Part shown: positions 30,583-42,463 of the stretch, piece after piece
How positions within the stretch are numbered: position 1 is the stretch's first letter
Layout of the letters: each line of letters opens with the position of its first letter
Origin: Gemmatimonadota bacterium
GTDB taxonomy: Bacteria > Gemmatimonadota > Gemmatimonadetes > Longimicrobiales > Gaopeijiaceae
Assembly: GCA_026706635.1 (NCBI GenBank)
Contig: JAPOYJ010000033.1
Location: 1,044 to 65,043 of the forward strand
Direction of reading: 5' to 3'
Length of the DNA stretch: 64,000 nucleotides
The notes under the pieces: model-generated
Seen by the model: only the letters and a program-made list of their open reading frames with translations
Databases searched by the model: none
What the model was told of the DNA's origin: nothing
Program-made: the position numbers and the translations under genes

Positions 30583-32811
30583 CTACGGGCTGGCGCCCGT
30601 CCCCCTGCCAGTCGTCGCACTCCATGCGTCTCGGTCCGGCACCCCGCGGCTCCAGCGCACCACATGGCCCGGCGGCACGCTCGGCCGCTCGGCGAAGTCG
30701 CCCCGGATGGCGCGCACCTGCCCGCTCCGCACGTCGCGGATCAGCGCCATCGTCGCCTCCGTGTCGCCGTCGAGGGTGACCAGTGCGTCCCCCGGGCCAG
30801 CCAGGACGAGGGTCGTGAGCGCCTCCCACCCCGGCTCGACCGGCAAGAGAAAGACGAAGATCCCGGTCCCCTCCTCCGCGTCCGCCGGCTCGTCCATCTC
30901 GAAGGAAATCGAGAAGAGCTCCAGCTGAGCGGCGTCCAGCCCCGTCAGCGTGTAGTCGCCACGCGCCTCCGGCAGCAGCCTCCGGCCCTCCACCAGGAGC
31001 GCCGGGTCCATCGACAGCTCCCCCGACGGACTCCGCGCGCCCCACACCAGCAGCGACGGCCCCGTCCGGTGCCTCGCCTCGCCGGACGACATCTCCTGCC
31101 CGGTCCTGTGCCGATGCGCCTTCTCGAAGTGGTAGTCGCTGACCCACTTTGGCTCGCAGTAGGTCATGAGGTCCTTCGCCTCATCCCTGTCGATCAGCGA
31201 GTCGCCGCGGTGATCGTGGCCCCACGCGCCTACGCTGCCGTCCTCGTAGGGGTACTCGGGATCGACACCCCTCGGATCGCCGCATGGAGCGTGCAAGAGG
31301 CCCAGGTTGTGCCCCAGCTCGTGCGCCATTACCGAAGCGTCGGGTACAGAGGCCGAGGAGGTGCCGGGACGATCTGCGGTGCCCCGCACATCCGAGAACC
31401 ACGGCATCAGGCCCATCCAGTATCCCGACCCACTCTCGGCAGCCCGGATCGCAGCGGTCCGGAGCAGCACAGCGTACCCGCTCCTGCTGTCGATTTCGAC
31501 CGGGTCGTGGTCGTCCACGGCCATCTCCTCGATCGGGAGCAGATCATAGGTGTCGTGGAGGAGTTCGTGGTCTTCCTCGTCGTCGGCCATCTCCTCCACG
31601 GTCTCGATCACCGACGAGTCGGGGTCCTCCGTGTAGAGGAACGGGATGGCCGTGAGTTCGAAGCCGGGCACGCCCTCCACCCCCAGATCCAGCTCGCCGC
31701 TCTCCGGGATTCGCTTGGTGGTGAGGATCTCGGCGTCGATCGTCGAGTCGGGGTCGATCTCGATCACCACCGAGAGTCCCTCCTCGATCACCGAATCGGG
31801 AATCGTCACGTTCAGCGACCTGTCGAGCGAACCCTCGTCGATATCGGTCGGGATCGGCTCGGACGTGCCGTCGATCTCGACCGAATATCTCTCCTCGTCG
31901 TCGACGTAGAATGTCGCCGTCGCCGGTGGCAGCGTCTCCGTCGTCGTGCGGGTGGCGGTTACGAAGACCCTGAGGAGAGCCTCCCTCTCCGCCACCACGG
32001 GCACCGGATGACTCCGCGACTGCACCGCCTGCACCATGTACGCGTCCGCAGGACGGTCGGCGCAGATCGTGGCCCGGCGTTTGGGAATGTCCCCGTACCA
32101 GTCCATGAGCGCTTCCGGCACGCACACGTCCGTCCCGTGCGCGAGGAATTCCCCCAGCGACGTCAGCTTGGAGAAGCTGGACGGCAGCTCGCCTTCGAGG
32201 TCGGCATTATTGTACACCCTGAGAATCTCAAGACCGCGCAGGTCGCCCAGCTCCGGCGGGATCGGGCCGGAGAGACCGTTGTCGTACAGGTGTAGCCTCT
32301 CAACCCGGCCGTCGGCGTCCGTGTACACGCCGTACCACGCATCAAGGGGCCAATCGGTGAGCCAGTTCGTGTTGTGGGCCCAGTTGTCTCCGTCGGTTTC
32401 GTCGTACAGGATCTCCAGCACTTCCCGGTTGGTGGGCCGCCGGACGCTGGCGGAGAAGGTCTGGGTTGCCGAGAGGCCGCCGTCGGAGGCAGTCACGGTA
32501 ACCTCCGCGCTCCCAACAGCCACCCCCGTGACCGCTGCGGCGTCACCCGAGACGGCGACGGTCGCCACATCGGTGTCCGAAGAGTTCGCGGAGTATCCCA
32601 GGTCGTCGCCGTCTGGATCGCTGAAGTGCTCGGCGACCGCGACCTCCACCGTCGTGTCGACCCTGATCTCCAGATCGTCGATCTTCCCGACCGCCTCGGG
32701 GGCACCGTTCCCATCGCAGCCGACGGCCCCCAGGGCAGCCGCGACCAGGACAGGGACGGCGCAGGTGGCCGGGACACTCGCGGCACTGCTGGACACTGAG
32801 CCTGAAAACAT
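30583..32811 (-). CDS. lipoprotein: Big_2-like Ig domain + short LRR + metzincin-type zinc metalloprotease domain (paralog 1)
   Basis: Lipobox LGAVGC; HELGHNLGLLHAPCG (HExxHxxGxxH). Start moved to the ATG at 32811 by comparison with paralog 2; the upstream 36 nt are conserved 5' UTR. Confidence 0.75.
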   Translation of the reverse strand: MFSGSVSSSAASVPATCAVPVLVAAALGAVGCDGNGAPEAVGKIDDLEIRVDTTVEVAVAEHFSDPDGDDLGYSANSSDTDVATVAVSGDAAAVTGVAVGSAEVTVTASDGGLSATQTFSASVRRPTNREVLEILYDETDGDNWAHNTNWLTDWPLDAWYGVYTDADGRVERLHLYDNGLSGPIPPELGDLRGLEILRVYNNADLEGELPSSFSKLTSLGEFLAHGTDVCVPEALMDWYGDIPKRRATICADRPADAYMVQAVQSRSHPVPVVAEREALLRVFVTATRTTTETLPPATATFYVDDEERYSVEIDGTSEPIPTDIDEGSLDRSLNVTIPDSVIEEGLSVVIEIDPDSTIDAEILTTKRIPESGELDLGVEGVPGFELTAIPFLYTEDPDSSVIETVEEMADDEEDHELLHDTYDLLPIEEMAVDDHDPVEIDSRSGYAVLLRTAAIRAAESGSGYWMGLMPWFSDVRGTADRPGTSSASVPDASVMAHELGHNLGLLHAPCGDPRGVDPEYPYEDGSVGAWGHDHRGDSLIDRDEAKDLMTYCEPKWVSDYHFEKAHRHRTGQEMSSGEARHRTGPSLLVWGARSPSGELSMDPALLVEGRRLLPEARGDYTLTGLDAAQLELFSISFEMDEPADAEEGTGIFVFLLPVEPGWEALTTLVLAGPGDALVTLDGDTEATMALIRDVRSGQVRAIRGDFAERPSVPPGHVVRWSRGVPDRDAWSATTGRGTGASP

Positions 32812-32943
32812 GTCGCCCACGCTAAGGCGTGCGTCCTTCATTCGCAAAAGCCCCTCGCCGCCTTAGTCGTACCGCCCCCGGTGGAGATCGTGACGCCGAC
32901 GGAGGCGCTCTACGGGCTCGCCAGCGGGGTCGCGGTGACGGTT

Positions 32944-32970
32944 GAACCTATGCGGATTCCGCAATAGTTC
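32944..32970 (+). repeat. REP-like hairpin element, copy 5
   Basis: gaacctatgcggattccgcaatagttc. Confidence 0.6.
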
Positions 32971-33007
32971 GGCCTATCGCCAGAAGCTCCGCGGCCCCCC
33001 CTGCACG

Positions 33008-35527
33008 CTACGGGCCGGCACCCGTCCCCCTGCCAGTCATCACGCTCCATGCATAGCGGTCCGGCACCCCGCGGCTCCAGCGCACCACGTGGCCCGGCGG
33101 CACGCTCGGCCGCTCGGCGAAGTCGCCCCGGATGGCGCGCACCTGCCCGCTCCGCTCGTCGCGGATCAGCGCCATCGTCGCCTCCGAGTCGCCGTCGAGG
33201 GTGAACAGGGCGTCCCCCGGGCCGGCCAGGACGAGGCTCGCGAGCGCCTTCCACCCCGGCTCGACAGGCAATAGGAAGACGAACATTCCGGTCCCCTCCT
33301 CCGCGTCCGCCGGCTCGTCCATATCGAACGAAATCGAGAAGAGCTCGCGCTGAGCGCCGTCCAGCCCCGTCAGCGTGTAGTCGCCACGCGCCTCTGGGAG
33401 CAGGCTCCGGCCCTCCACCAGCAGCGCCGGGTCCATCGACAGCTCCCCGGACGGGCTCCGCGTGCCCCACACCAGGAGCGACGGCCCCGTCCGGCGCCTT
33501 GCCTCGCCGCGCCACATCTCCTGCACGGTCCTGTGCCCGAAGGCGTTCGTGAAGTGGTAGTCGCTGACCCACTCCGGCTCGCAGTAGGTCATCAGGTCCT
33601 TCGCCTCATCCTTGTCGATCAGCGAGTCGCCGCGGTGATCGTAGCCCCACGCGCCAATGCTGCCGTCCCCGTAGGGGTAGGCGGGGTCGGGCGAGCCGGC
33701 ACCACCGCATGGAGCGTGCCGAAGGCTCAGGTTGTGCCCCAGCTCGTGCGCGATAATCCAGGCGACGGGAACGGAGGCCGAGGAGGTGCTGGGAACTCCG
33801 TCAGCGACGCCCCGCACATCCGAGAAACTCGGCATCAGGCCCATCCAGTATCCCGATCCGCTCTCGGCGGCTCGAATCGCAATGGTCCGGAACAGCACAG
33901 CGTACCCGCTCCTGCTGTCGATCTCGACGGGGTCGTGGCCGTCAACGGTCATCTCCTCGATCGGGAGCAGATCGTAGGTTTCGTGGAGGAGCTCGTGGTT
34001 CTCCTCGTCCTCCGCCATCCCCTCGACATCCTCGATCACCGAAGAATCGGGGTCGCGGGTGTACAGAAACGGAATGGCCGTGAGCTCGAAGTCGGGCACG
34101 CCCTCCACCCCCAGGTCCAGCTCGCCGCTCTCCGGGATCCGCTTGGCGGTGAGGATCTCGGCGTCGATCGTCGAGTCGGGGTCGATCTCGATCACCACCG
34201 AGAGTCCCTCCTCGATCACCGAATCGGGAATCGTCACGTTCAGCGACCTGTCGAGCGAACCCTCGTCGATATCGGTCGGGATCGGCTCGGACGTGCCGTC
34301 GATCTCGACCGAATATCTCTCCTCGTCGTCGACGTAGAATGTCGCCGTCGCCGGTGGCAGCGTCTCCGTCGTCGTGCGGGTGGCGGTTACGAAGACCCTG
34401 AGGAGAGCCTCCTTCTCCGCCACCACGGGCACCGGATGACTCCGCGACTGCACTGCCTGCACCAGGTACGCGTCCGCAGGACGGTCGGCGCAGACCATGG
34501 CCCGCCGCCTGGGAATGCCCCGGTACCAGTCCAGCAGCGTGTCCGGCACGCACACGCCCGTCCCGTGCGCGAGGAATTCCTCCAGCGACGTCAGCTTGGA
34601 GAAGCTGGACGGCAGCTCGCCTTCGAGGTCGGCGTTGTTGTGCATGTGGAGCCGCAAGAGCTCACTCAGGTCGCCCAGCTCCGGGGGGATCGGGCCGGAG
34701 AGATCGTTGTCGTGCAGGTATAGGTAGCCGAGATTGCCCAGGTCTCCCATCTCCGGGGGGATCGGGCCGGAGAGACTGTTGCGTTGCAGGTATAGGTAGC
34801 CAAGTCTGTCCAGGTCGCCCAGCTCCGGGGGGATCGGGCCGGAGAGATCGTTGTCGTGCAGGTATAGGTAGCCGAGATTGCCCAGGTCGCCCAGCTCCGG
34901 GGGGATCGGGCCGGAGAGACTGTTGGAGTACAGGTGTAGCCACTCTAGATTGCTCAGACCGCCCATCTCCGGGGGGATCGGGCCGGAGAGATCGTTGTAG
35001 CCCAGGTGTAGCGTCTCAACCCGACCGTCGGCATCCGCGCCTACCCCGTACCACTCGTCAAGGGGCCCGTCGGTGAGCCAGTTCGTTCTGTAGGCCCAGT
35101 TGTCTCCGTCGGTATTGTCGTACAGGATCTCCAACACTTCCCGGTTGGTGGGCCGCCGGACGATGGCGACGAAGTTCTGGTTTGCCGAGAGGCTGCCGTC
35201 GGAGGCAGTCGCGGTGATCTCCGCGCTCCCAACAGCCACCCCCGTGACCGCTACGGCGTCTCCCGAGCGGGCGACGGTGGCAACATCAGTGTCCGAAGAG
35301 CTCGCGGAGTAGCGGAGGTCGTCTCCGTCTGGATCGCTGAAGTACTCGGCGAGCACGATCTTCACCGTTGTGTCCACCGTGATCTCCAGATCGTCGATCA
35401 CCCCGACCGCCCCAGGAGCGCCGTTCCCATCGCAGCCGACGGCCCACAGGGCAGCCGCGACTAGTACGGAGACGCCGCAGGTGGCCGGGACACTCGCGAC
35501 AGTGCTGGAGCCTGAGTCTGGAGGCAT
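33008..35527 (-). CDS. lipoprotein: Big_2-like Ig domain + expanded 24-residue LRR array + metzincin domain (paralog 2)
   Basis: Lipobox LWAVGC; HELGHNLSLRHAPCG; repeated LSGPIPPELGDLxNLGYLYLHDND units. Confidence 0.75.
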   Translation of the reverse strand: MPPDSGSSTVASVPATCGVSVLVAAALWAVGCDGNGAPGAVGVIDDLEITVDTTVKIVLAEYFSDPDGDDLRYSASSSDTDVATVARSGDAVAVTGVAVGSAEITATASDGSLSANQNFVAIVRRPTNREVLEILYDNTDGDNWAYRTNWLTDGPLDEWYGVGADADGRVETLHLGYNDLSGPIPPEMGGLSNLEWLHLYSNSLSGPIPPELGDLGNLGYLYLHDNDLSGPIPPELGDLDRLGYLYLQRNSLSGPIPPEMGDLGNLGYLYLHDNDLSGPIPPELGDLSELLRLHMHNNADLEGELPSSFSKLTSLEEFLAHGTGVCVPDTLLDWYRGIPRRRAMVCADRPADAYLVQAVQSRSHPVPVVAEKEALLRVFVTATRTTTETLPPATATFYVDDEERYSVEIDGTSEPIPTDIDEGSLDRSLNVTIPDSVIEEGLSVVIEIDPDSTIDAEILTAKRIPESGELDLGVEGVPDFELTAIPFLYTRDPDSSVIEDVEGMAEDEENHELLHETYDLLPIEEMTVDGHDPVEIDSRSGYAVLFRTIAIRAAESGSGYWMGLMPSFSDVRGVADGVPSTSSASVPVAWIIAHELGHNLSLRHAPCGGAGSPDPAYPYGDGSIGAWGYDHRGDSLIDKDEAKDLMTYCEPEWVSDYHFTNAFGHRTVQEMWRGEARRRTGPSLLVWGTRSPSGELSMDPALLVEGRSLLPEARGDYTLTGLDGAQRELFSISFDMDEPADAEEGTGMFVFLLPVEPGWKALASLVLAGPGDALFTLDGDSEATMALIRDERSGQVRAIRGDFAERPSVPPGHVVRWSRGVPDRYAWSVMTGRGTGAGP
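34667..35026. repeat. five tandem 72-bp units (coding, = 24-aa LRR units)
   Basis: Repeated ...ccagctccggggggatcgggccggagagatcgttgtcgtgcaggtataggtagccgagattgcccaggtcgc... read directly. Confidence 0.8.
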
Positions 35528-35578: not shown

Positions 35579-36388
35579 CTACCCGTACCGCCCCTCGATG
35601 TAGTCGGCCGTCTCGGAGTGCCTGGGCGACAGGAACAGCTCCTCGGTGAGACCGTGCTCCACGATCCGGCCCAGCAGCATGAAGACGCACTCCTCCGACG
35701 CGCGCCGCGCCTGCGCCATGTTGTGCGTGACGATCAGGATCGTGTACTCGCCGCGCAGCCTCCAGATCAGCTCCTCGACGGCCTCCGTGCCTGCGGGGTC
35801 GAGCGCCGAGCACGGCTCGTCCATGAGTAGCACCTGGGGCTTCACCGGGAGGAGCCGCGCGATGCAGAGCTTCTGCTGCTCCTCGAGCGAGAGTCCGGTA
35901 GCGGGCCTGTCCAGGCGGTCCTTCACACTGTCCCAGAGCAGCACCTGGCGCAGCGACGACTCCAGAACCTCATCCTCCTCCGCTGCGCTCACCCTGCGCA
36001 GCCGCGCCTCGTGCAGCCGGAATCCGAAGAGGACGTTCTCGCGGATCGAGATCGGGAGCGGATTGGGGCGCTGGAAGACCATGCCGATCCTCTTGCGCAC
36101 CTGCACCAGCTCGACGTCGTCCCCGAAGATATCGTGGCCCAGGACGTAGACGCTCCCGGTGGTGCGCACGTACCCAAGCCGCTCGATGATGCGGTTGCAC
36201 GTCCGGAGCAGGGTTGTCTTGCCGCACCCGGACGGGCCGATCATCGAGGTTATCGTTCCCCGTCCGACCCCAAGATCGACGTCGAAGAGCGCCTGGAAGT
36301 CGCCGTACCAGAGGTTCAGCCCCCGGGTCTCGATGGCGAAGTCGCCGCCGCCAGGGGCCTGCGGGCGCGACCCCCCCGGGCTATCCAT
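35579..36388 (-). CDS. pstB: phosphate ABC transporter ATPase, copy 1 (intact Walker A/B, Q- and H-loops; degenerate signature LSLEEQQ)
   Basis: GPSGCGKTT, MVFQRPNPLPISI, LLMDEPCSALD, VTHNMAQA, C-terminal YIEGRYG. LSLEEQQKL stands where LSGGQQQRL is expected. Confidence 0.9.
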   Translation of the reverse strand: MDSPGGSRPQAPGGGDFAIETRGLNLWYGDFQALFDVDLGVGRGTITSMIGPSGCGKTTLLRTCNRIIERLGYVRTTGSVYVLGHDIFGDDVELVQVRKRIGMVFQRPNPLPISIRENVLFGFRLHEARLRRVSAAEEDEVLESSLRQVLLWDSVKDRLDRPATGLSLEEQQKLCIARLLPVKPQVLLMDEPCSALDPAGTEAVEELIWRLRGEYTILIVTHNMAQARRASEECVFMLLGRIVEHGLTEELFLSPRHSETADYIEGRYG

Positions 36389-37184
36389 AGCGCCCCTCGA
36401 TGTAGCCGGTGGTCCGCTCGTCCCTGGCCTCGCCCGCGAAGAGATCCTCGGTGTCGCCGATCTCGACCAGCTCGCCCATCAGGAAGAAGGCGGTGCGGTC
36501 GGCGAGACGGCGCGCCTGCTGCACCAGATTCGTGACCAGCACTATCGTGAGCTCGGAGCGAAGCTCCTTCAGCACGTCCTCTATCCGCATCGTCGTGACC
36601 GGATCGACGGCGATGGAGAACTCGTCCAAAAGGAGCAGCTCGGGCTCCTGCGAGAGTGCGCGGGCGATCGTGAGGCGCTGCTGCTGTCCCCCCGAGAGCA
36701 GGCTTCCCAGGGAGTCGAGCCGGTCCTTGACCTCGTCCCAGAGCGCGGCGCGCCTGAGGCACCTCTCGACGACCTCGTCCAGCTGGGCCCTCCTGCGGAC
36801 TCCGCGCAGCCGGGGCGAGAAGGCGACGTTCTCGTAGACCGTCAGCGGCAGTCCGACCGGCAGCGGAAACACGACCCCGATGCGTCGACGCAGAGCGTAC
36901 TCGTTGCGCCAGTCGTTGACGTTCTTCCCGTTGATCCGAATGCTCCCCTCCACCTGCATGGCCGGGTTGAAGGCGTCCATGCGGTTCAGAGCGCGCAGGA
37001 AGGACGTCTTGCCGCTGTTGGCCGGGCCGATGATCCCGAAGATCTCGTGGCGGTGGATCTCCAGGGTGACGTTGTCCAGGGCGCGCCTGCCGCCGTACGC
37101 GATGGAGAGGTCGCGGACCTCGATTACGGGCGAATCGTCGTACGCCGGGCCGGCGCCGCCGCTGGCGACGGTCGCCTCTACCAC
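36381..37184 (-). CDS. pstB: phosphate ABC transporter ATPase, copy 2 (intact signature; Q-loop and H-loop substituted)
   Basis: GPANSGKTS, VVFPLPVGLP (Q to P), LSGGQQQRL, LLLLDEFSIAVD, VTNLVQQA (H to N), YIEGRYG. GTG at 37184 overlaps the pstA stop. Confidence 0.85.
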   Translation of the reverse strand: MVEATVASGGAGPAYDDSPVIEVRDLSIAYGGRRALDNVTLEIHRHEIFGIIGPANSGKTSFLRALNRMDAFNPAMQVEGSIRINGKNVNDWRNEYALRRRIGVVFPLPVGLPLTVYENVAFSPRLRGVRRRAQLDEVVERCLRRAALWDEVKDRLDSLGSLLSGGQQQRLTIARALSQEPELLLLDEFSIAVDPVTTMRIEDVLKELRSELTIVLVTNLVQQARRLADRTAFFLMGELVEIGDTEDLFAGEARDERTTGYIEGRYG

Positions 37185-38071
37185 TTCTTCAGCCCCCTGA
37201 GGTAGACGCGGAACCCGATCGACACGGCGTTCATCAGGAGCACGATGGCGATCAGCACGAGCGCCACCCCGAAGGTGAGCTCCTCCGGCACGTCGGTCGC
37301 CTGGGTCGCGATGTAGTAGAGGTGGTACGACATCGCCATCGTCTGGTCGAGGACGCTCTCCGGGAGGAAGGCCACGAAGGCGGTGGCTCCCGTGAACATG
37401 ATCGGCGCGGTCTCTCCGGCCGTGCGCGAGACCTCCAGGATCACGCCGGTGAGGATTCCGCTGACCGAATTGGGAAGCACCACCTTGCGGATCGTCTGCC
37501 AGCGGGTGGCCCCCATGTTCAGGCACGCGTCCCGGAAGGCCTGCGGCACCGCCTGGAGCGACTCGCGGGTGGCGACGATCACGACCGGCAGCGTCATGAT
37601 CGCCAGGGTGAGGCCGGCGGCGAGAATCGAGGCGCCGAACCTGAAGAAGAGCACGAACGCCCCCACCCCGAAGAGCGCGTGCACGATCGACGGCACCCCC
37701 GCCAAGTTGATGATGGCCAGGTTGATGGTCCGGGTGAGCAGGTTGTCCGGCGCGTACTCGCTCAGGTACAGCGCCGCGGCCACGCCGAGCGGCACCGACG
37801 CCAGGAGCGCGACTACCACGAGCCAGACGGTGCCAACGAGCGCCGGGAGTATGCCCCCCGCCGTCATGTTGTCCTTCGGCGGGGTGAAGAGGAACTCCCA
37901 GGAGATCGCGGGCCCGCCCTTGACCACCAGCGTGCCCACGATGAGGAGCACCGGAACCACGAGCGCCACCGTCATCAGGCAGAAGACGGCTCGCGCGACG
38001 CTCTGGTTACGGGAGCTGCGTCTGTTCAGCCGCGTCGCGGCGAACATGGGGTGTTGGCGGGCCGTGGACAT
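37178..38071 (-). CDS. pstA: phosphate ABC transporter permease PstA
   Basis: 297 aa, 6 TM, permease EAA region (SRTAGETAPIMFTGA). Confidence 0.9.
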   Translation of the reverse strand: MSTARQHPMFAATRLNRRSSRNQSVARAVFCLMTVALVVPVLLIVGTLVVKGGPAISWEFLFTPPKDNMTAGGILPALVGTVWLVVVALLASVPLGVAAALYLSEYAPDNLLTRTINLAIINLAGVPSIVHALFGVGAFVLFFRFGASILAAGLTLAIMTLPVVIVATRESLQAVPQAFRDACLNMGATRWQTIRKVVLPNSVSGILTGVILEVSRTAGETAPIMFTGATAFVAFLPESVLDQTMAMSYHLYYIATQATDVPEELTFGVALVLIAIVLLMNAVSIGFRVYLRGLKKW

Positions 38072-38140
38072 GGGCCGCTAGCGGTCCATGGACAGAGCCG
38101 CCCGAGCACCGAGAGCGGCGAGGCGCCGGGCTGGCAAGGC

Positions 38141-38248
38141 GCGACGAAGCGGGAATAGCAGCGCTATTCGTGCGAGGAGTAACGCAGAGCCCAGCCGTCC
38201 AGCGTGGATGCATCGCCGCTCGAATGCCGGGGGGATTCTGTGCATGGG
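38141..38248 (+). repeat. GC-rich repeat module (copy D, lacks the AT-rich double palindrome) in the pstC-pstA intergenic gap
   Basis: ...agccgtccagcgtggatgcatcgccgctcgaatgccggggggattctgtgcatggg aligns with copies B and C. Confidence 0.55.
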
Positions 38249-38252
38249 CCGC

Positions 38253-39185
38253 TTACTCCTTCCGGATTCCGCGGACGACGATGTCCGCGGTGAGGTTGAT
38301 CGCGAAGGTGACCACGAAGAGGAGGATGCCCAGGGTGAAGAGGGAGCCGTAGTGATCCCCTCCCGTCACCGTGTCGCCGAGCTCGGCGGCGATCGTCGCG
38401 GTGAGCGCCCGCACCGAGTCGAAGACGCTGGTGGGGAGGTTGATCGCGTGGCCCGAGGCCATCAGCACGGCCATCGTCTCCCCGAACCCTCTCCCGACGC
38501 CCAGGAGCACGGCGGCCAGCAGCCCGTTCCGGGACGCCGGAATCACCACCTTGAGGATCACCTCCCAGCGGGTCGCCCCCAGCGCTTCCGCCGCCTCGCG
38601 GTAGGTGTCGGGCACCGCCTTGAGCGCATCCTCGGCGATCGTCGTCATGATGGGGGCTGCCATCAGCCCCAGGATCAGCCCTGCGTTGAGGACATTCAGC
38701 CCCACCGGGATCTCGAAGGTCTGGATGATGAGCGGGTTCATGATCGACATGCCCACGAACCCCCACACCACCGATGGGATCGCCGCCAGCATCTCCACTA
38801 GGACCTTCAGCGTCTCGCGCGTCTTGCCGCTGGCGAACTCCGCGATGAAGAGCGCCGCGCCCAGCGACAGGGGGACCGACAGGAGCATCGCGAAGCCCGT
38901 CACGCTGGCGGTGCCCACGATCAGCGCCAGCGCCCCGTACGTCGGGTTGTTGGAGGTGGGCCGCCACGCGATCGAGGTCAGGAATTCTCCCAGCTTCAAC
39001 GGCCCCAGGACGAAGCCGAGACCCTCCTTGGTGATGAAGACGAAGATCCCGACGATGAAGACGATCGCCGAAATGCCCCCGACGAAGACGAGGAGGCGGG
39101 CGGCACGGTCCACATGCCACGCCATGTCCCTGCGATCCATTGCGCCGATGCCCGCACCGGCGCCGGGGCTGTCGGCAGGCGTCAC
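38253..39185 (-). CDS. pstC: phosphate ABC transporter permease PstC
   Basis: Multi-TM with the EAA loop GRGFGETMAVLMASG. GTG at 39185 forms a GTGA overlap with the upstream stop (alternative ATG at 39140). Confidence 0.85.
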   Translation of the reverse strand: MTPADSPGAGAGIGAMDRRDMAWHVDRAARLLVFVGGISAIVFIVGIFVFITKEGLGFVLGPLKLGEFLTSIAWRPTSNNPTYGALALIVGTASVTGFAMLLSVPLSLGAALFIAEFASGKTRETLKVLVEMLAAIPSVVWGFVGMSIMNPLIIQTFEIPVGLNVLNAGLILGLMAAPIMTTIAEDALKAVPDTYREAAEALGATRWEVILKVVIPASRNGLLAAVLLGVGRGFGETMAVLMASGHAINLPTSVFDSVRALTATIAAELGDTVTGGDHYGSLFTLGILLFVVTFAINLTADIVVRGIRKE

Positions 39186-40258
39186 TCGTCGTCCCGCACT
39201 CCGAGAGTCTTCATGAGGCCGCGCAGGCGGACCATGAGGGCACGGTACAGCTCCTCCACCTCCGAATCGGCGGTGATTCCGTCCTCCGCCAAGTCCCACT
39301 GAAGCACGGCCGTCCGATATGGAACGTCGAAGTGCGGCGACGGGTCCAGGCCGATCCCCACCACCACATGGTAGTGCGGGCCCACGTCGAGCGCCTCGTC
39401 AAGAGAGCGGGGGAATTCGTCCTCAGGCAGCGCCACCCCCCGTCGCCTGCAGAATGCGGGGAGCCTCTCGTCGAAGCCGGGCGCGGGCTCCAGCCCGGCC
39501 GACCGGAAGCGCCCCGCGTGCGGATAGGTCTCCTCGAGTGCGATCTCAGCCAGCCTGCTCGCGAGGGAGTGGTCCCTGTCGACGAATAGGATCCGGTACC
39601 GCTTCTCCTTCTTGCGCCGTCCTGTGACGGCGAAGAGCGTCATCTCGCACGCGTTGTCGGCCTGTTCCGCCGTCCGCTGCAGGAGCCTGAAGACGAGCAG
39701 CGCCCCGAAGAGGTCCCGGGCAGGACAGCGCTCCGACTCCGCCGCCGAGATCAGCCCCTCGACGGCGTGGGGATAGATCGCGGCAGTCTGCGAGGCGATG
39801 CCGTGCGAGGTGCGGGCGCTGTCGGGGTCTCCCTCGACGAAACCCCTGAACGCGGTGCCGAGCGCCTTGCCGGCGTGCGCGCCCATCATCGCGATGTTGT
39901 GAGCGACGGCGTCCGGAAGCGGCGTCTCGATGTCGCGCGCCACCCGGCAGATCGCCACCGAGTAGTCGCCCACCCGTTCCAGCGCCACCGCGAGTCGCAG
40001 CACGGCCGAGGTGAACCTCAGGTGACTTCCGCTCGGGAGGTGGCGCGCCACGAAGAGATGGCAGAGGTGGTCGAGGGCCCGCGTCGCCTGGTTGGCCGCC
40101 CGATCCTTGATCAGCGTCTCGTTGGCGAGTCGCGGATCTGAGTCGAGAACCGCGCGGACGCTGTGCCGGAGATTGTCCTCGACCTGCTCCGCCACCGCCT
40201 GGAGGCGGCCCCGAATCTCCTGCAGATCCGCCTCCAGCCGCTTGTCGTAGATGCTCAC
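39182..40258 (-). CDS. PhoU-domain protein fused to a degenerate LMW-PTP/ArsC-like domain
   Basis: Two PhoU repeats (...LRFTSAVLRLAVALERVGDYSV...), then YRILFVDRDHSLASRLAE aligning to the LMW-PTP P-loop ILFVCxGNxCRSxxAE with Cys to Asp and Arg to Ala. GTGA overlap with the pstS stop. Confidence 0.8.
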   Translation of the reverse strand: MSIYDKRLEADLQEIRGRLQAVAEQVEDNLRHSVRAVLDSDPRLANETLIKDRAANQATRALDHLCHLFVARHLPSGSHLRFTSAVLRLAVALERVGDYSVAICRVARDIETPLPDAVAHNIAMMGAHAGKALGTAFRGFVEGDPDSARTSHGIASQTAAIYPHAVEGLISAAESERCPARDLFGALLVFRLLQRTAEQADNACEMTLFAVTGRRKKEKRYRILFVDRDHSLASRLAEIALEETYPHAGRFRSAGLEPAPGFDERLPAFCRRRGVALPEDEFPRSLDEALDVGPHYHVVVGIGLDPSPHFDVPYRTAVLQWDLAEDGITADSEVEELYRALMVRLRGLMKTLGVRDDE

Positions 40259-41139
40259 GCGCACTCCGTCTCCGTGTAGGGAGCGTAGCCACGCTCGATG
40301 ATCACGCACTGGCCGTCGGTGGAGAGTATCCAGTCCATGTACGACCTGACCGCGCCCTGGGGCTGGCCCGCCGTGTACATGAAGAGCGGGCGCGCGATGG
40401 GATAGCTTCCGCTGACGGCGGTGGAGACGGACGGTTCGACGCAGTCGCCGCCCTCCTCCACCGTGACGCAGGGCATGCGCACGTGCTCGGTCGCGTAGGC
40501 GAGTCCGCTGTACCCGATCGCGCAGGGGGTGTTCTCCACCAGATCGACCACGTCCTTGGAGCCGTGCATGTCCCGGGAACCGAGCTTGTACTCGGCGTCG
40601 TCGCCCAGGACCGTCTCCTTGAAGTAGACGTAGGTGCCCGAGTTGTTCTGCCTGCTGACGAGCACGATCTCGTCGGAGCCGCAGCCGGGCACCCTCACCC
40701 CCAGCTCCGACCACTGCGTAGTCGTTCCGCCCTCGCCGTAGATGCCCCTGAGCTGGGCCAGGCTGAGGCCTTCGATGGGGTTGTCCTCGTGCACGTAGAC
40801 GGCCAGCGCGTCGTAGCCAACGACGAATTCGACGGGCTCGACGCCATTCTCGCGGGCCAGCTCGATCTCCGATTCGCGCATCTTTCTGGACGAGTTCGCG
40901 ATGTCGACGGTGCCGTTGATCATCGCGGAAATGCCAGTGCCGGATCCGCCGCCCGTGACCGCGACCGCCACCTTCGCGTTGACTGCGGCGTATGCTTCGG
41001 CCCAGGCCTGGGCGACGTTCAGGAGCGTGTCGGAGCCGCGGTTCTGGATGACCGCCCGCTGACTCCCGTCGCCCCCGCCCCCGCACGCTGCGACGGTCAG
41101 CGCTACGAGTGGGACGATCCGCTGCGCGATCTGCTTCAC
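40255..41139 (-). CDS. pstS: phosphate-binding lipoprotein PstS
   Basis: Lipobox LTVAAC; GSDTLLNVAQAW...GGGSGTGI...NSSR is the PstS/PBP signature. Confidence 0.9.
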   Translation of the reverse strand: MKQIAQRIVPLVALTVAACGGGGDGSQRAVIQNRGSDTLLNVAQAWAEAYAAVNAKVAVAVTGGGSGTGISAMINGTVDIANSSRKMRESEIELARENGVEPVEFVVGYDALAVYVHEDNPIEGLSLAQLRGIYGEGGTTTQWSELGVRVPGCGSDEIVLVSRQNNSGTYVYFKETVLGDDAEYKLGSRDMHGSKDVVDLVENTPCAIGYSGLAYATEHVRMPCVTVEEGGDCVEPSVSTAVSGSYPIARPLFMYTAGQPQGAVRSYMDWILSTDGQCVIIERGYAPYTETECA

Positions 41140-41296
41140 TGTGTCTCTCCGTTTCTCGATCTGGACGATGGAACTCTAGCAGCCCGCGGGCAAACCTATG
41201 ACTCGCAATGCCCGTGCCCGTGGCCTCGCTCTGCATTCCTCCGCAGGTCGGTAGCGCCGCTACCAGCCCGAGTTCCCCCAGGGCAGCCCCGGCGGG

Positions 41297-42463
41297 TCAG
41301 TAGTAGAGGTAGCTCTGTATCTTGCACGAGTAATGCGTGGACTCGGGTCCTTGTCGGTAGATGTCCAGGTTGGCGCCGATCCGGTTTCTGCCCTTTATGT
41401 AGAGGAAGAGGCCGGGGGTGACGACCATCCCGGCGTCGGTCGGGGCCGCCCTCTCCGGATCTCCCCAGCTGACTCGCGCCATCGGCTCTATCGCCTCCAG
41501 CCGCGACCCCTCCAGCGGGAAGTAGCGGCTGAGAATCCCCTGCCAGGCGAGGAACCGGGGCGGCCCGTCCTCCGTCGATTCCAGCCAGTTGGCACCTGCA
41601 ACGAGACCGAGCTGCAGATGCGTCCCGTCGCGGAAGCCGCCGAGCTCGAGGTCCGCTCCGAAGGCGGTGGCGGCCTTGCTGCTGTCGCGGGAGTCGAGGT
41701 AGTCGTGTCTGGACACGTTTCCCGCAAGCGTCAGGTCGTCGGTCAGATCCAGCGACAGGCGGGCGGCCAGCGACTTGCCCGAATTCTCGTCGGACCCCGA
41801 TGTGCCCGTGCCGTTGGTGAGCGTCGCCATGTAGCGGACCCGTTCGCCAAGCGATCCGTCCACCTTCACCCCGATGTCGCGGTCCGAGTATCCCAGCTTC
41901 TCGGTGAACCGGCTGAGCGAGCACACCCCGCCCACCCCTGCGCACGCCTCCAACCCGTCGATCCGACCGGTCCTCTCCACCACCACGATCTCGGTGGAGC
42001 TGTTCAGCTCGAAGAGGTCGAAGGCCCGCTTGAACTGCCCCATCGAGACCCTTAAGGCGCGGTCGAAGCCGAGTCGGAAGTACGCGTCCTTCAGCTCCAG
42101 CTTCCCGCCCCCGAAGTCGGGCTGAACGCGGGCGTCGAGAAGCGGCGTGACGCGCACATCGATAGTGAGCCGGGCGCGGCGTGTGAAGAAGTCGGTGGCC
42201 TTGCCCTCTTCGGCCGAGCTCGTGGCGAACTGCGTGTGGAGACGGCCTCCGAAGCGAACCTCCCCACCTCGGGCGCTAATATCCGCCTGTCCCGCCAGCG
42301 CCGTGGGGAGGGCGGCGACGAGGGAGAGCATCAGCAGTCCGTGGATAATCTCGCGCGAGCACCGAGACCGGCGAAGCTCCGCCGGGCGAATGCCGTCGGG
42401 GTCGTGTTCGCGGCCCGCCCCGCTGGCGAGGTGCCGGGCCGAGAGGGAGAGATACCTTTCCAC
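41297..42463 (-). CDS. phosphate-selective porin O/P family protein (start between 42331 and 42463)
   Basis: ...RFGGRLHTQF...FTRRARLTIDV...LKDAYFRLGF...MGQFKRAFDLFEL is OprO/OprP-like. Ends in aromatic residues ...YLYY. Confidence 0.75.
   Translation of the reverse strand: MERYLSLSARHLASGAGREHDPDGIRPAELRRSRCSREIIHGLLMLSLVAALPTALAGQADISARGGEVRFGGRLHTQFATSSAEEGKATDFFTRRARLTIDVRVTPLLDARVQPDFGGGKLELKDAYFRLGFDRALRVSMGQFKRAFDLFELNSSTEIVVVERTGRIDGLEACAGVGGVCSLSRFTEKLGYSDRDIGVKVDGSLGERVRYMATLTNGTGTSGSDENSGKSLAARLSLDLTDDLTLAGNVSRHDYLDSRDSSKAATAFGADLELGGFRDGTHLQLGLVAGANWLESTEDGPPRFLAWQGILSRYFPLEGSRLEAIEPMARVSWGDPERAAPTDAGMVVTPGLFLYIKGRNRIGANLDIYRQGPESTHYSCKIQSYLYY

Follow-up and report, generated by a model that had tools for sequence, protein, structure and literature searches.

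Can a phosphate importer run on two PstB ATPases, neither of which carries a complete set of ATP-binding cassette (ABC) motifs? This question is raised by a 64,000-nucleotide stretch of Gemmatimonadota DNA (contig JAPOYJ010000033.1 of assembly GCA_026706635.1; hereafter the window), whose minus strand carries two pstB genes side by side. Copy 1, which we refer to as S-type, is located at 35579..36388 and encodes 269 aa, and copy 2, referred to as N-type, is located at 36381..37184, starts with GTG, and encodes 267 aa. Comparison of the two proteins with their relatives points to an obligate heterodimer of the two PstBs, in which one ATP site is consensus and the other degenerate and which would drive the only Pst importer of the organism. 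We assign this reading a probability of about 0.73.

The motifs of both copies were read from the translated open reading frames (ORFs). In copy 1, the Walker A (GPSGCGKTT), Q-loop (MVFQRPNPLP), Walker B/D-loop (LLMDEPCSALD), and H-loop (IVTHNMAQA) are all canonical, and the signature is LSLEEQQKL in place of LSGGQ, with Glu169 encoded by 35882-35884. In copy 2, the signature LSGGQQQRL is canonical. The Q-loop Gln is replaced by Pro107 (VVFPLPVGLP, codon 36864-36866) and the H-loop His by Asn219 (LVTNLVQQA, codon 36528-36530), and both the Walker A (GPANSGKTS) and the D-loop following Walker B (LLLDEFSIAVD) are altered. Copy 2 still has the Lys/Thr of Walker A, the Asp-Glu of Walker B, and the Tyr of the A-loop. 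Neither copy has the complete canonical motif set: LSGGQ is missing from copy 1, and the Q-loop Gln and the H-loop His are missing from copy 2. The two proteins share 43% identity, and both align without gaps through all motifs with the solved PstB of Escherichia coli (9k3x; E=2e-71 and 1.4e-64); therefore, the substitutions are not alignment artefacts. The initial annotation had described copy 1 as canonical apart from its LSLEEQQ signature, and copy 2 as keeping LSGGQQQRL with a Q-to-P Q-loop, an H-to-N H-loop, and a changed D-loop, while naming misalignment as a possible flaw. Both ORFs are present at the coordinates given here, their translations carry the motifs as described, and the substitutions are real.

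Both proteins clearly belong with PstB. TIGR00972 was the best-matching family for each of them, covering model positions 2-248 of 248 in copy 1 (E=7e-92) and 2-248 in copy 2 (E=1.1e-85), and the next-best families were other PstB models. The scores of 307.2 bits (copy 1) and 287.0 bits (copy 2) are below the equivalog cut-off of 343.2 bits, and the canonical single PstBs of sister genera reach 390-394 bits. A dedicated model for either the N-type or the S-type was not found in NCBIfam. For copy 2, AlphaFold2 (AF2) gave a predicted local distance difference test score (pLDDT) of 32 from the single sequence; the alignment-based model, with a pLDDT of 90.3 and an intact nucleotide-binding domain (NBD), was used. 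The top Foldseek matches of this model were 9k3s_C and 9k3x_C (E about 1e-28, root mean square deviation [rmsd] 1.4-2.0 A). Superposition on E. coli PstB 9k3x_C gave template modelling (TM) scores of 0.88/0.95 with an rmsd of 1.4 A at 43% identity.

Each ATP site of an ABC dimer is composed of the Walker A/B, Q-loop, and H-loop motifs of one subunit and the LSGGQ of its partner, as shown for E. coli PstB, where one PstB is positioned on PstA and one on PstC (PMC12976172). In a mixed dimer of the window's proteins, the catalytic motifs of copy 1 and the LSGGQ of copy 2 would form a fully canonical consensus site, which would hydrolyze ATP and drive the conformational cycle of PstC/PstA. The second site would combine the Walker A/B motifs of copy 2 with the LSLEE of copy 1. 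This degenerate site keeps all nucleotide-binding residues (the Tyr of the A-loop, the Lys/Thr of Walker A, and the Asp-Glu of Walker B), and its three sensors of the gamma-phosphate or the Mg-water are replaced (Pro for the Q-loop Gln, Asn for the H-loop His, and Glu for the second signature Gly). The site most likely binds nucleotide and hydrolyzes it very slowly or not at all, so that the pocket would act as a structural or allosteric half-site and the transport cost would be approximately one ATP per cycle. Heterodimer assembly, nucleotide binding, and the missing hydrolysis at the degenerate site are steps that we infer.

The source genome, a 2.8-Mb Gemmatimonadota metagenome-assembled genome (MAG) with 96.4% completeness, was searched in full with TIGR00972. 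The only PstBs detected were copies 1 and 2 (307 and 287 bits), the next ABC ATPase scored 147 bits, and no canonical PstB that could serve as a fallback was found in this 96.4%-complete genome. Copies 1 and 2 would power the organism's only Pst phosphate importer. Because there are only two PstBs and neither is canonical, either homodimer would have two defective sites: a dimer of copy 1 alone would place the degenerate signature in each site, and in a dimer of copy 2 alone each site would be without the Q-loop Gln and the H-loop His. One complete site is obtained only when the two copies pair with each other. The two genes overlap by 8 nt (36381..36388, minus strand), the TAG of copy 2 being located at 36381-36383 and the ATG of copy 1 at 36386-36388, which suggests translational coupling and hence roughly equimolar subunits. 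The N-type and S-type genes are joined about as tightly in Sorangium (gap of 9 nt) and in a Gemmatimonadaceae MAG (overlap of 4 nt). The observations that bear on a putative 1:1 heterodimer on the membrane subunits are the overlap in the window and the strict co-occurrence of the two genes.

Related loci were drawn from 201 sampled Gemmatimonadota genomes by orthology to copy 2, whose orthologues showed 70-100% identity, followed by a gap down to 52% or less. In all 22 loci of the window's clade, the N-type gene precedes the adjacent S-type gene, and both degenerations are present together. The copy 2 orthologues in these loci all carry the Q-to-P and H-to-N replacements and DEFSIAV/ID, and the copy 1 orthologues all carry LSLE[EKRG]Q, with Glu at signature position 4 (22/22) and the remaining motifs canonical. 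The substitutions of copy 2 are also all fixed in its 120 closest database homologues. Pairwise comparison with ten relatives gave ratios of nonsynonymous to synonymous substitution rates (dN/dS) of 0.07-0.17 for copy 1 and 0.10-0.36 for copy 2. These low values indicate that both genes are maintained by purifying selection and that copy 2 is not under relaxed constraint. In one locus of the window's family (L020, genome G080), the N-type Walker A Lys is changed to Arg (GPSNSGRTS), a further degeneration of the same half-site.

The same division of motifs was observed in larger sets. Among 240 N-type sequences from two clades, the H-loop His is Asn in 240/240 and both signature glycines are present in 240/240. 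The Q-loop Gln is Pro in 120/120 sequences of the window's clade and Ala in 120/120 sequences of the main clade. The binding residues are retained nearly throughout (Walker A Lys, 239/240; Walker B Asp and Glu, 240/240; A-loop Tyr/Phe, 236/240). In the S-type main clade, consisting of 121 sequences around Sorangium, the catalytic motifs are canonical, signature positions 1-3 vary (LSGEQ, LTSEQ, IASEQ, and others), and position 4 is Glu in 121/121. We then define differential positions as those fixed within a type yet unlike 91 canonical PstBs. In the N-type, such positions occur only in the Walker A, in the helix that follows it, in the Q-loop, in the Walker B/D-loop, and in the H-loop. The S-type has two, the signature Gly-to-Glu replacement and one Ala-to-Val replacement. 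Except for this Ala-to-Val, all differential positions lie in one composite ATP site or the adjoining D-loop. All deviations map to this site, and the other composite site is fully canonical in every lineage examined, in agreement with the earlier proposal that pairing copies 1 and 2 gives one canonical and one degenerate site. The conservation pattern fits a site that binds nucleotide and is non-catalytic. As a background, canonical PstBs (75 single proteins of diverse bacteria, a tandem pair of Akkermansia, and tandem pairs of other Gemmatimonadota families) showed a sole deviation, one MSGGQ variant.

Furthermore, the N/S pair was found well outside the window's family. A search of cluster representatives yielded further PstB clusters with Q to A/S together with H to N, and separate PstB clusters with altered signatures such as LSAEQ and LTEEQ. 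In the N-type cluster P0128, the 120 closest homologues all share GPA[G]SGKTS, VFA(T)PQPLP, LSGGQ, and VTN. The operon of Sorangium sp. So ce260 (CP150320.1) consists of pstS, a fused pstCA, an N-type pstB, a second pstB with an LTSEQ signature and canonical catalytic motifs, and phoU. A Gemmatimonadaceae MAG has an operon arranged as in Sorangium, with the S-type signature LSAEQ. A broad genome scan with an N-type alignment, whose patterns were generic (LSGGQQQRL-like), listed 80 loci, 76 of which were ordinary PstB and were used as background. The listed loci comprised 75 single canonical PstBs, one canonical tandem pair (Akkermansia), and four N-type loci. These four, among the matches listed, were in MAGs labelled Planctomycetales, WOR-1, Desulfobaccales, and Desantisbacteria. 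Three of them directly precede an S-type partner (LSLEQ, LSLEA, and LTEEQ), and the fourth is at a contig end, with its partner (LSLEY) found where another contig of that genome begins. In addition, a second PstB immediately follows the N-type gene on two short metagenome contigs.

Across the six further lineages, the N-type, with Q to A/S and H to N, is always paired with a signature-degenerate partner, and no N-type without an S-type was found among the 28 lineages or loci examined. The pair may be the only PstB in the Planctomycetales MAG, and a canonical PstB may coexist with it in WOR-1 and Desulfobaccales. The N/S pair is old and multi-phylum, with members in at least six bacterial phyla. 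The initial annotation had proposed surveying relatives for co-variation of the two degenerations; they do vary together in the 22 loci and the six further lineages, and no independent loss was observed. What it had missed is that the pair represents an old multi-phylum family and not a feature of a single operon. Two features of these operons were noted in passing. PstC and PstA of Sorangium sp. So ce260 (L041) are fused as a 594-aa permease upstream of the N/S pair, and in the Planctomycetales MAG (L050, 4538-5503), the S-type pstB is separated from phoU by a Ppx/GppA phosphatase gene.

The abundance of the N-type in Gemmatimonadota was estimated by a census. Outside the window's clade, N-type and canonical proteins cannot be told apart by percent identity to copy 2 or P0128, both being at ~50-59%. 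An N-type profile was therefore used, for which the score gap is narrow (at least 358.8 versus at most 351.7 bits) and a clear call was set at 375 bits or more. The census is score-based, and motifs were inspected at the individually described loci only. By score, the N-type was clear in 51 of 401 sampled Gemmatimonadota genomes and borderline in three, with known canonical proteins reaching at most 352 bits. It was detected in 25/25 sampled species of the window's genus, in 46-48 of 71 genomes of the window's family, and in 5-6 genomes elsewhere in the phylum. Other genera of the window's family have a single canonical PstB.

To place the pair phylogenetically, a careful tree of 91 rows was built from which five motif segments had been removed, so that the motifs could not drive the grouping. 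The S-type, including the clade of copy 1 of the window, forms one clade with support of 99/93, and the N-type, including the clade of copy 2, forms one clade with support of 77/96. A duplication local to the window's family was rejected, as forcing its two clades together gave p=0.011 in the approximately unbiased (AU) test. Nor was there support for deriving the N/S pair from the canonical tandem pairs found in other Gemmatimonadota families; the latter fall in two other clades, indicating a duplication different from that of the N/S pair. The window's pair is thus a diverged member of the old N/S pair that has been moved or inherited as a unit. The further divergence of the window's family consists of Q-loop Pro rather than Ala, DEF-SIAVD, and LSLEE. 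In the two Gemmatimonadota families with canonical tandem pairs (f4 and f5; L031-L036), most genomes have tandem pstB with both copies fully canonical, which differ from each other mainly in the D-loop region (DEPTASLD upstream and DEPCSALD/DEPASALD downstream).

A third, orphan PstB-like gene was observed in many relatives, in a string of permease, PstB-like, and PhoU genes; the window's genome does not have it. Examples are loci L126, L128, L138, L139, L144, L146, and L147 (genomes G064, G130, G132, G161, G087, G189, and G123). Its signature is LSAGQ, LSAEE, or LAPGD, its H-loop ATH, ATN, ATS, or ATT, and its Q-loop is variable. At L125 (G116:C1:102712-103446), the third PstB exceeds the TIGR00972 cut-off and carries a natural Walker B Glu-to-Gln replacement (LLMDQP) with the signature LSTGQ.

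Several points weigh against an obligate heterodimer with a non-catalytic second site. The N-type keeps the catalytic Walker B Glu (240/240), unlike most degenerate sites of exporters, and residual hydrolysis at the degenerate site is therefore possible. The Glu that replaces the second signature Gly could hinder closure around ATP rather than allow stable binding, and the pocket may contain ATP, ADP, or nothing. The monophyly of the N-type together with the window's clade is only moderately supported (77/96), and a quicker tree with long outgroups leaves the window's N clade unresolved. Heterodimer formation, nucleotide occupancy, and site-specific hydrolysis are all conclusions drawn from sequence. 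Retention of the Walker A Lys, the Walker B Asp, and the catalytic Glu, seen in practically every N-type sequence, would also suit an importer that is functionally near-symmetric, with both composite sites hydrolyzing ATP and the substitutions being tolerated. Q-loop changes are indeed partly tolerated in some ABC proteins, as mutagenesis has revealed. However, few positions of ABC ATPases tolerate change as poorly as the H-loop His and the second signature Gly, an example being the acidic substitution of this Gly in CFTR. Moreover, the changes are concentrated in one composite site while the other is perfectly canonical in every lineage, which is unlike a neutral pattern, and we regard near-symmetry as improbable. 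Even less credible is a division into separate homodimers with different jobs, one for transport and one with an accessory or regulatory role. Such an arrangement was proposed for PstB1/PstB2 of Enterococcus faecalis, whose tandem pstB genes are non-equivalent, an excess of PstB2 replacing PstB1 (PMC12096839). The E. faecalis copies, however, have identical canonical motifs. In the window, a copy 1 dimer would contain LSLEE twice and a copy 2 dimer would lack Gln and His twice, the genome has no canonical PstB, and the N-type and S-type were never found apart in 28 lineages or loci. The probability that one of the copies is a duplicate decaying into a pseudogene is close to nil. Both proteins do score below the TIGR00972 cut-off, but both ORFs are intact, dN/dS is about 0.1-0.2 for both, the motifs are fixed over hundreds of homologues from several phyla, and the AF2 model of copy 2 is confident. 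Decay or relaxed selection is ruled out by dN/dS and motif fixation, as far as sequence allows.

A different reading leaves the heterodimer and its single catalytic site in place and assigns the degenerate pocket a regulatory or latch function, with the N-type as a sensor or clamp. The N-type would then hold nucleotide permanently or report nucleotide or phosphate status, setting the gating of the importer and possibly Pho signaling via PhoU. The replacement residues are invariant (H-loop Asn, 240/240; Glu at signature position 4, 121/121 plus 22/22), a sign of selection for some new property rather than of decay, and the three gamma-phosphate sensors are replaced while the binding residues stay. 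E. coli PstB is reported to interact with PhoU and PhoR in inorganic phosphate (Pi) signaling (as cited in PMC12976172), and the operon of the window encodes an unusual PhoU fusion. On the other hand, ligand binding and signaling are conjectural here, other N/S operons encode a plain PhoU, which places the fusion outside the core design, and the surroundings of the H-loop vary by clade (VTNNTKQA, VTNSIYQA, and VTNLVQQA), which argues against one fixed contact between subunits. A fixed Glu-Lys contact across the degenerate site, with the Lys at the third position after the H-loop Asn, was rejected, as this Lys is missing from the window's clade (VTNLVQQA) and from part of the main clade (VTNSIYQA). 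We consider a regulatory or latch role unlikely. With the same reserve, the N/S pair may be an old multi-phylum Pst class whose second pocket was rebuilt as a regulatory or latch site and not merely inactivated. Such a pocket, with an invariant Glu at the point where the signature Gly contacts the gamma-phosphate, Asn invariably in place of the switch His, and the Q-loop Gln missing, would be unable to sense the gamma-phosphate. If so, each phosphate would carry a fixed cost of one ATP, and importer gating would be coupled to Pho signaling.

Returning to the heterodimer and its surroundings, the two pstB genes form the end of a co-directional gene string on the minus strand (35579-42463), in the order porin, pstS, phoU fusion, pstC, pstA, pstB copy 2, and pstB copy 1. 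The genes for PstS, PstC, and PstA all score above their family cut-offs and lie directly upstream of the pstB pair on the same strand with overlapping junctions. The pstA permease gene (37178..38071; TIGR00974, 263.8 bits, cut-off 193.45) shares 7 nt between its stop and the GTG start of copy 2. The pstC permease gene is located at 38253..39185 (TIGR02138, 259.8 bits, above cut-off). The TIGR02138 match starts at residue 65 of the long pstC ORF; translation probably begins with the GTG at 39185, whose overlap with the stop of the phoU fusion reads GTGA, and the longer ORF reaching 39299 is probably unused. Between pstC and pstA lies a 181-bp non-coding spacer (38072-38252), and the remaining operon junctions are overlapping or tight.

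The phoU fusion, which lies between pstS and pstC (39182..40258, minus strand), matches TIGR02135 with 103.7 bits over residues 20-228. It carries a C-terminal extension of ~125 aa, and Pfam recognizes the PhoU domain only. As a universal part of the N/S module, the fusion was ruled out, because a plain PhoU is encoded downstream of both pstB genes in the Sorangium, Planctomycetales, and WOR-1 N/S operons (L041, L050, and L051). The gene for the phosphate-binding protein PstS is located at 40255..41139 (minus strand; TIGR02136, 228.1 bits, above cut-off). The pst gene string is headed by a gene for an outer-membrane protein resembling phosphate-selective porin O/P (41297..42463, minus strand; PF07396 Porin_O_P, E=5.7e-9, 36.1 bits versus a cut-off of 20.9). 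Directly downstream of the operon, on the minus strand at 30583-35527, two large paralogous genes encode proteins of 754 and 839 aa with Big-like, leucine-rich repeat (LRR), and metalloprotease-like features and long near-identical stretches.

Degenerate ATP sites are a textbook feature of ABC exporters, and type I binding-protein-dependent importers are usually treated as having two equivalent ATP sites. The number of ATP molecules used per substrate in importers is a long-running question, which has so far been approached with engineered half-dead dimers. A conserved natural Pst importer that apparently runs on one canonical site would provide a system for studying single-site importer mechanics, and the N/S pair occurs both in Sorangium strains that can be cultivated and in many uncultured lineages. 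It could reveal what a degenerate site contributes when the catalytic Glu stays, and whether PstB asymmetry feeds phosphate signaling. Both subunits are annotated only as "phosphate ABC transporter ATP-binding protein." With this generic annotation and scores at or below the PstB cut-off, genomes could be misread as having no bona fide PstB or a redundant duplicate.

The closest solved system is PstSCAB of E. coli (9k3x, 9k3y, and 9k3s; PMC12976172), which is a transporter of the same type with the same gene set (pstS, pstC, pstA, pstB, plus phoU) and whose PstB has the NBD fold seen in the copy 2 model. E. coli PstB is present as two identical, fully canonical subunits with two equivalent sites, whereas the window encodes two unlike subunits, neither canonical, and one canonical site exists in the mixed pair only. 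Tandem canonical pstB genes, as in E. faecalis, other Gemmatimonadota, and Akkermansia, resemble the N/S pair in being adjacent at the end of a pst operon and possibly forming a heterodimer, but both copies are canonical in all motifs. In E. faecalis, which has the most thoroughly studied tandem pstB pair, PstB1 and PstB2 have identical canonical motifs and PstB2 can replace PstB1; its authors stated that no earlier study of tandem pstB paralogues existed (PMC12096839), and tandem pstB is known in Firmicutes. The view that an asymmetric pair is undescribed for Pst importers, already taken in the initial annotation, agrees with our full-text literature searches, which, with incomplete coverage, returned no description of a consensus/degenerate PstB pair. 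Among importers, the CUT2-type proteins RbsA and NupO of Bacillus subtilis (PMC11466899) also have one of two ATP sites degenerate by sequence. They belong to another importer class with both NBDs in one polypeptide and have lost the Walker A Lys and Walker B residues, so that nucleotide is not bound, whereas the N/S pair keeps the binding residues.

The design itself is best known from the heterodimeric exporters TM287/288, TmrAB, BmrCD, TAP1/2, CFTR, and Pdr5, which likewise have one consensus and one degenerate composite site. In these exporters, the degenerate site arises from changes in the catalytic motifs of one NBD together with a signature change in its partner, and it is thought to be structural or allosteric (PMC3971661, PMC7756269). 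The degenerate-site signature of Pdr5, LNVEQ, also has Glu at position 4 (PMC7756269). The exporters differ from the window's system in that their NBDs are fused to transmembrane domains (TMDs), while the window encodes a type I binding-protein-dependent importer whose NBDs are free subunits. The N/S PstB pair also does not show the hallmark of the exporter sites, loss of the Walker B catalytic Glu; here the Q-loop Gln is lost instead, Asn invariably takes the place of the H-loop His, and Glu invariably that of signature Gly4. These comparisons suggest that an NBD heterodimer design already known in exporters also operates, as an asymmetric PstB pair, in a type I phosphate importer, which would be new for this transporter type.

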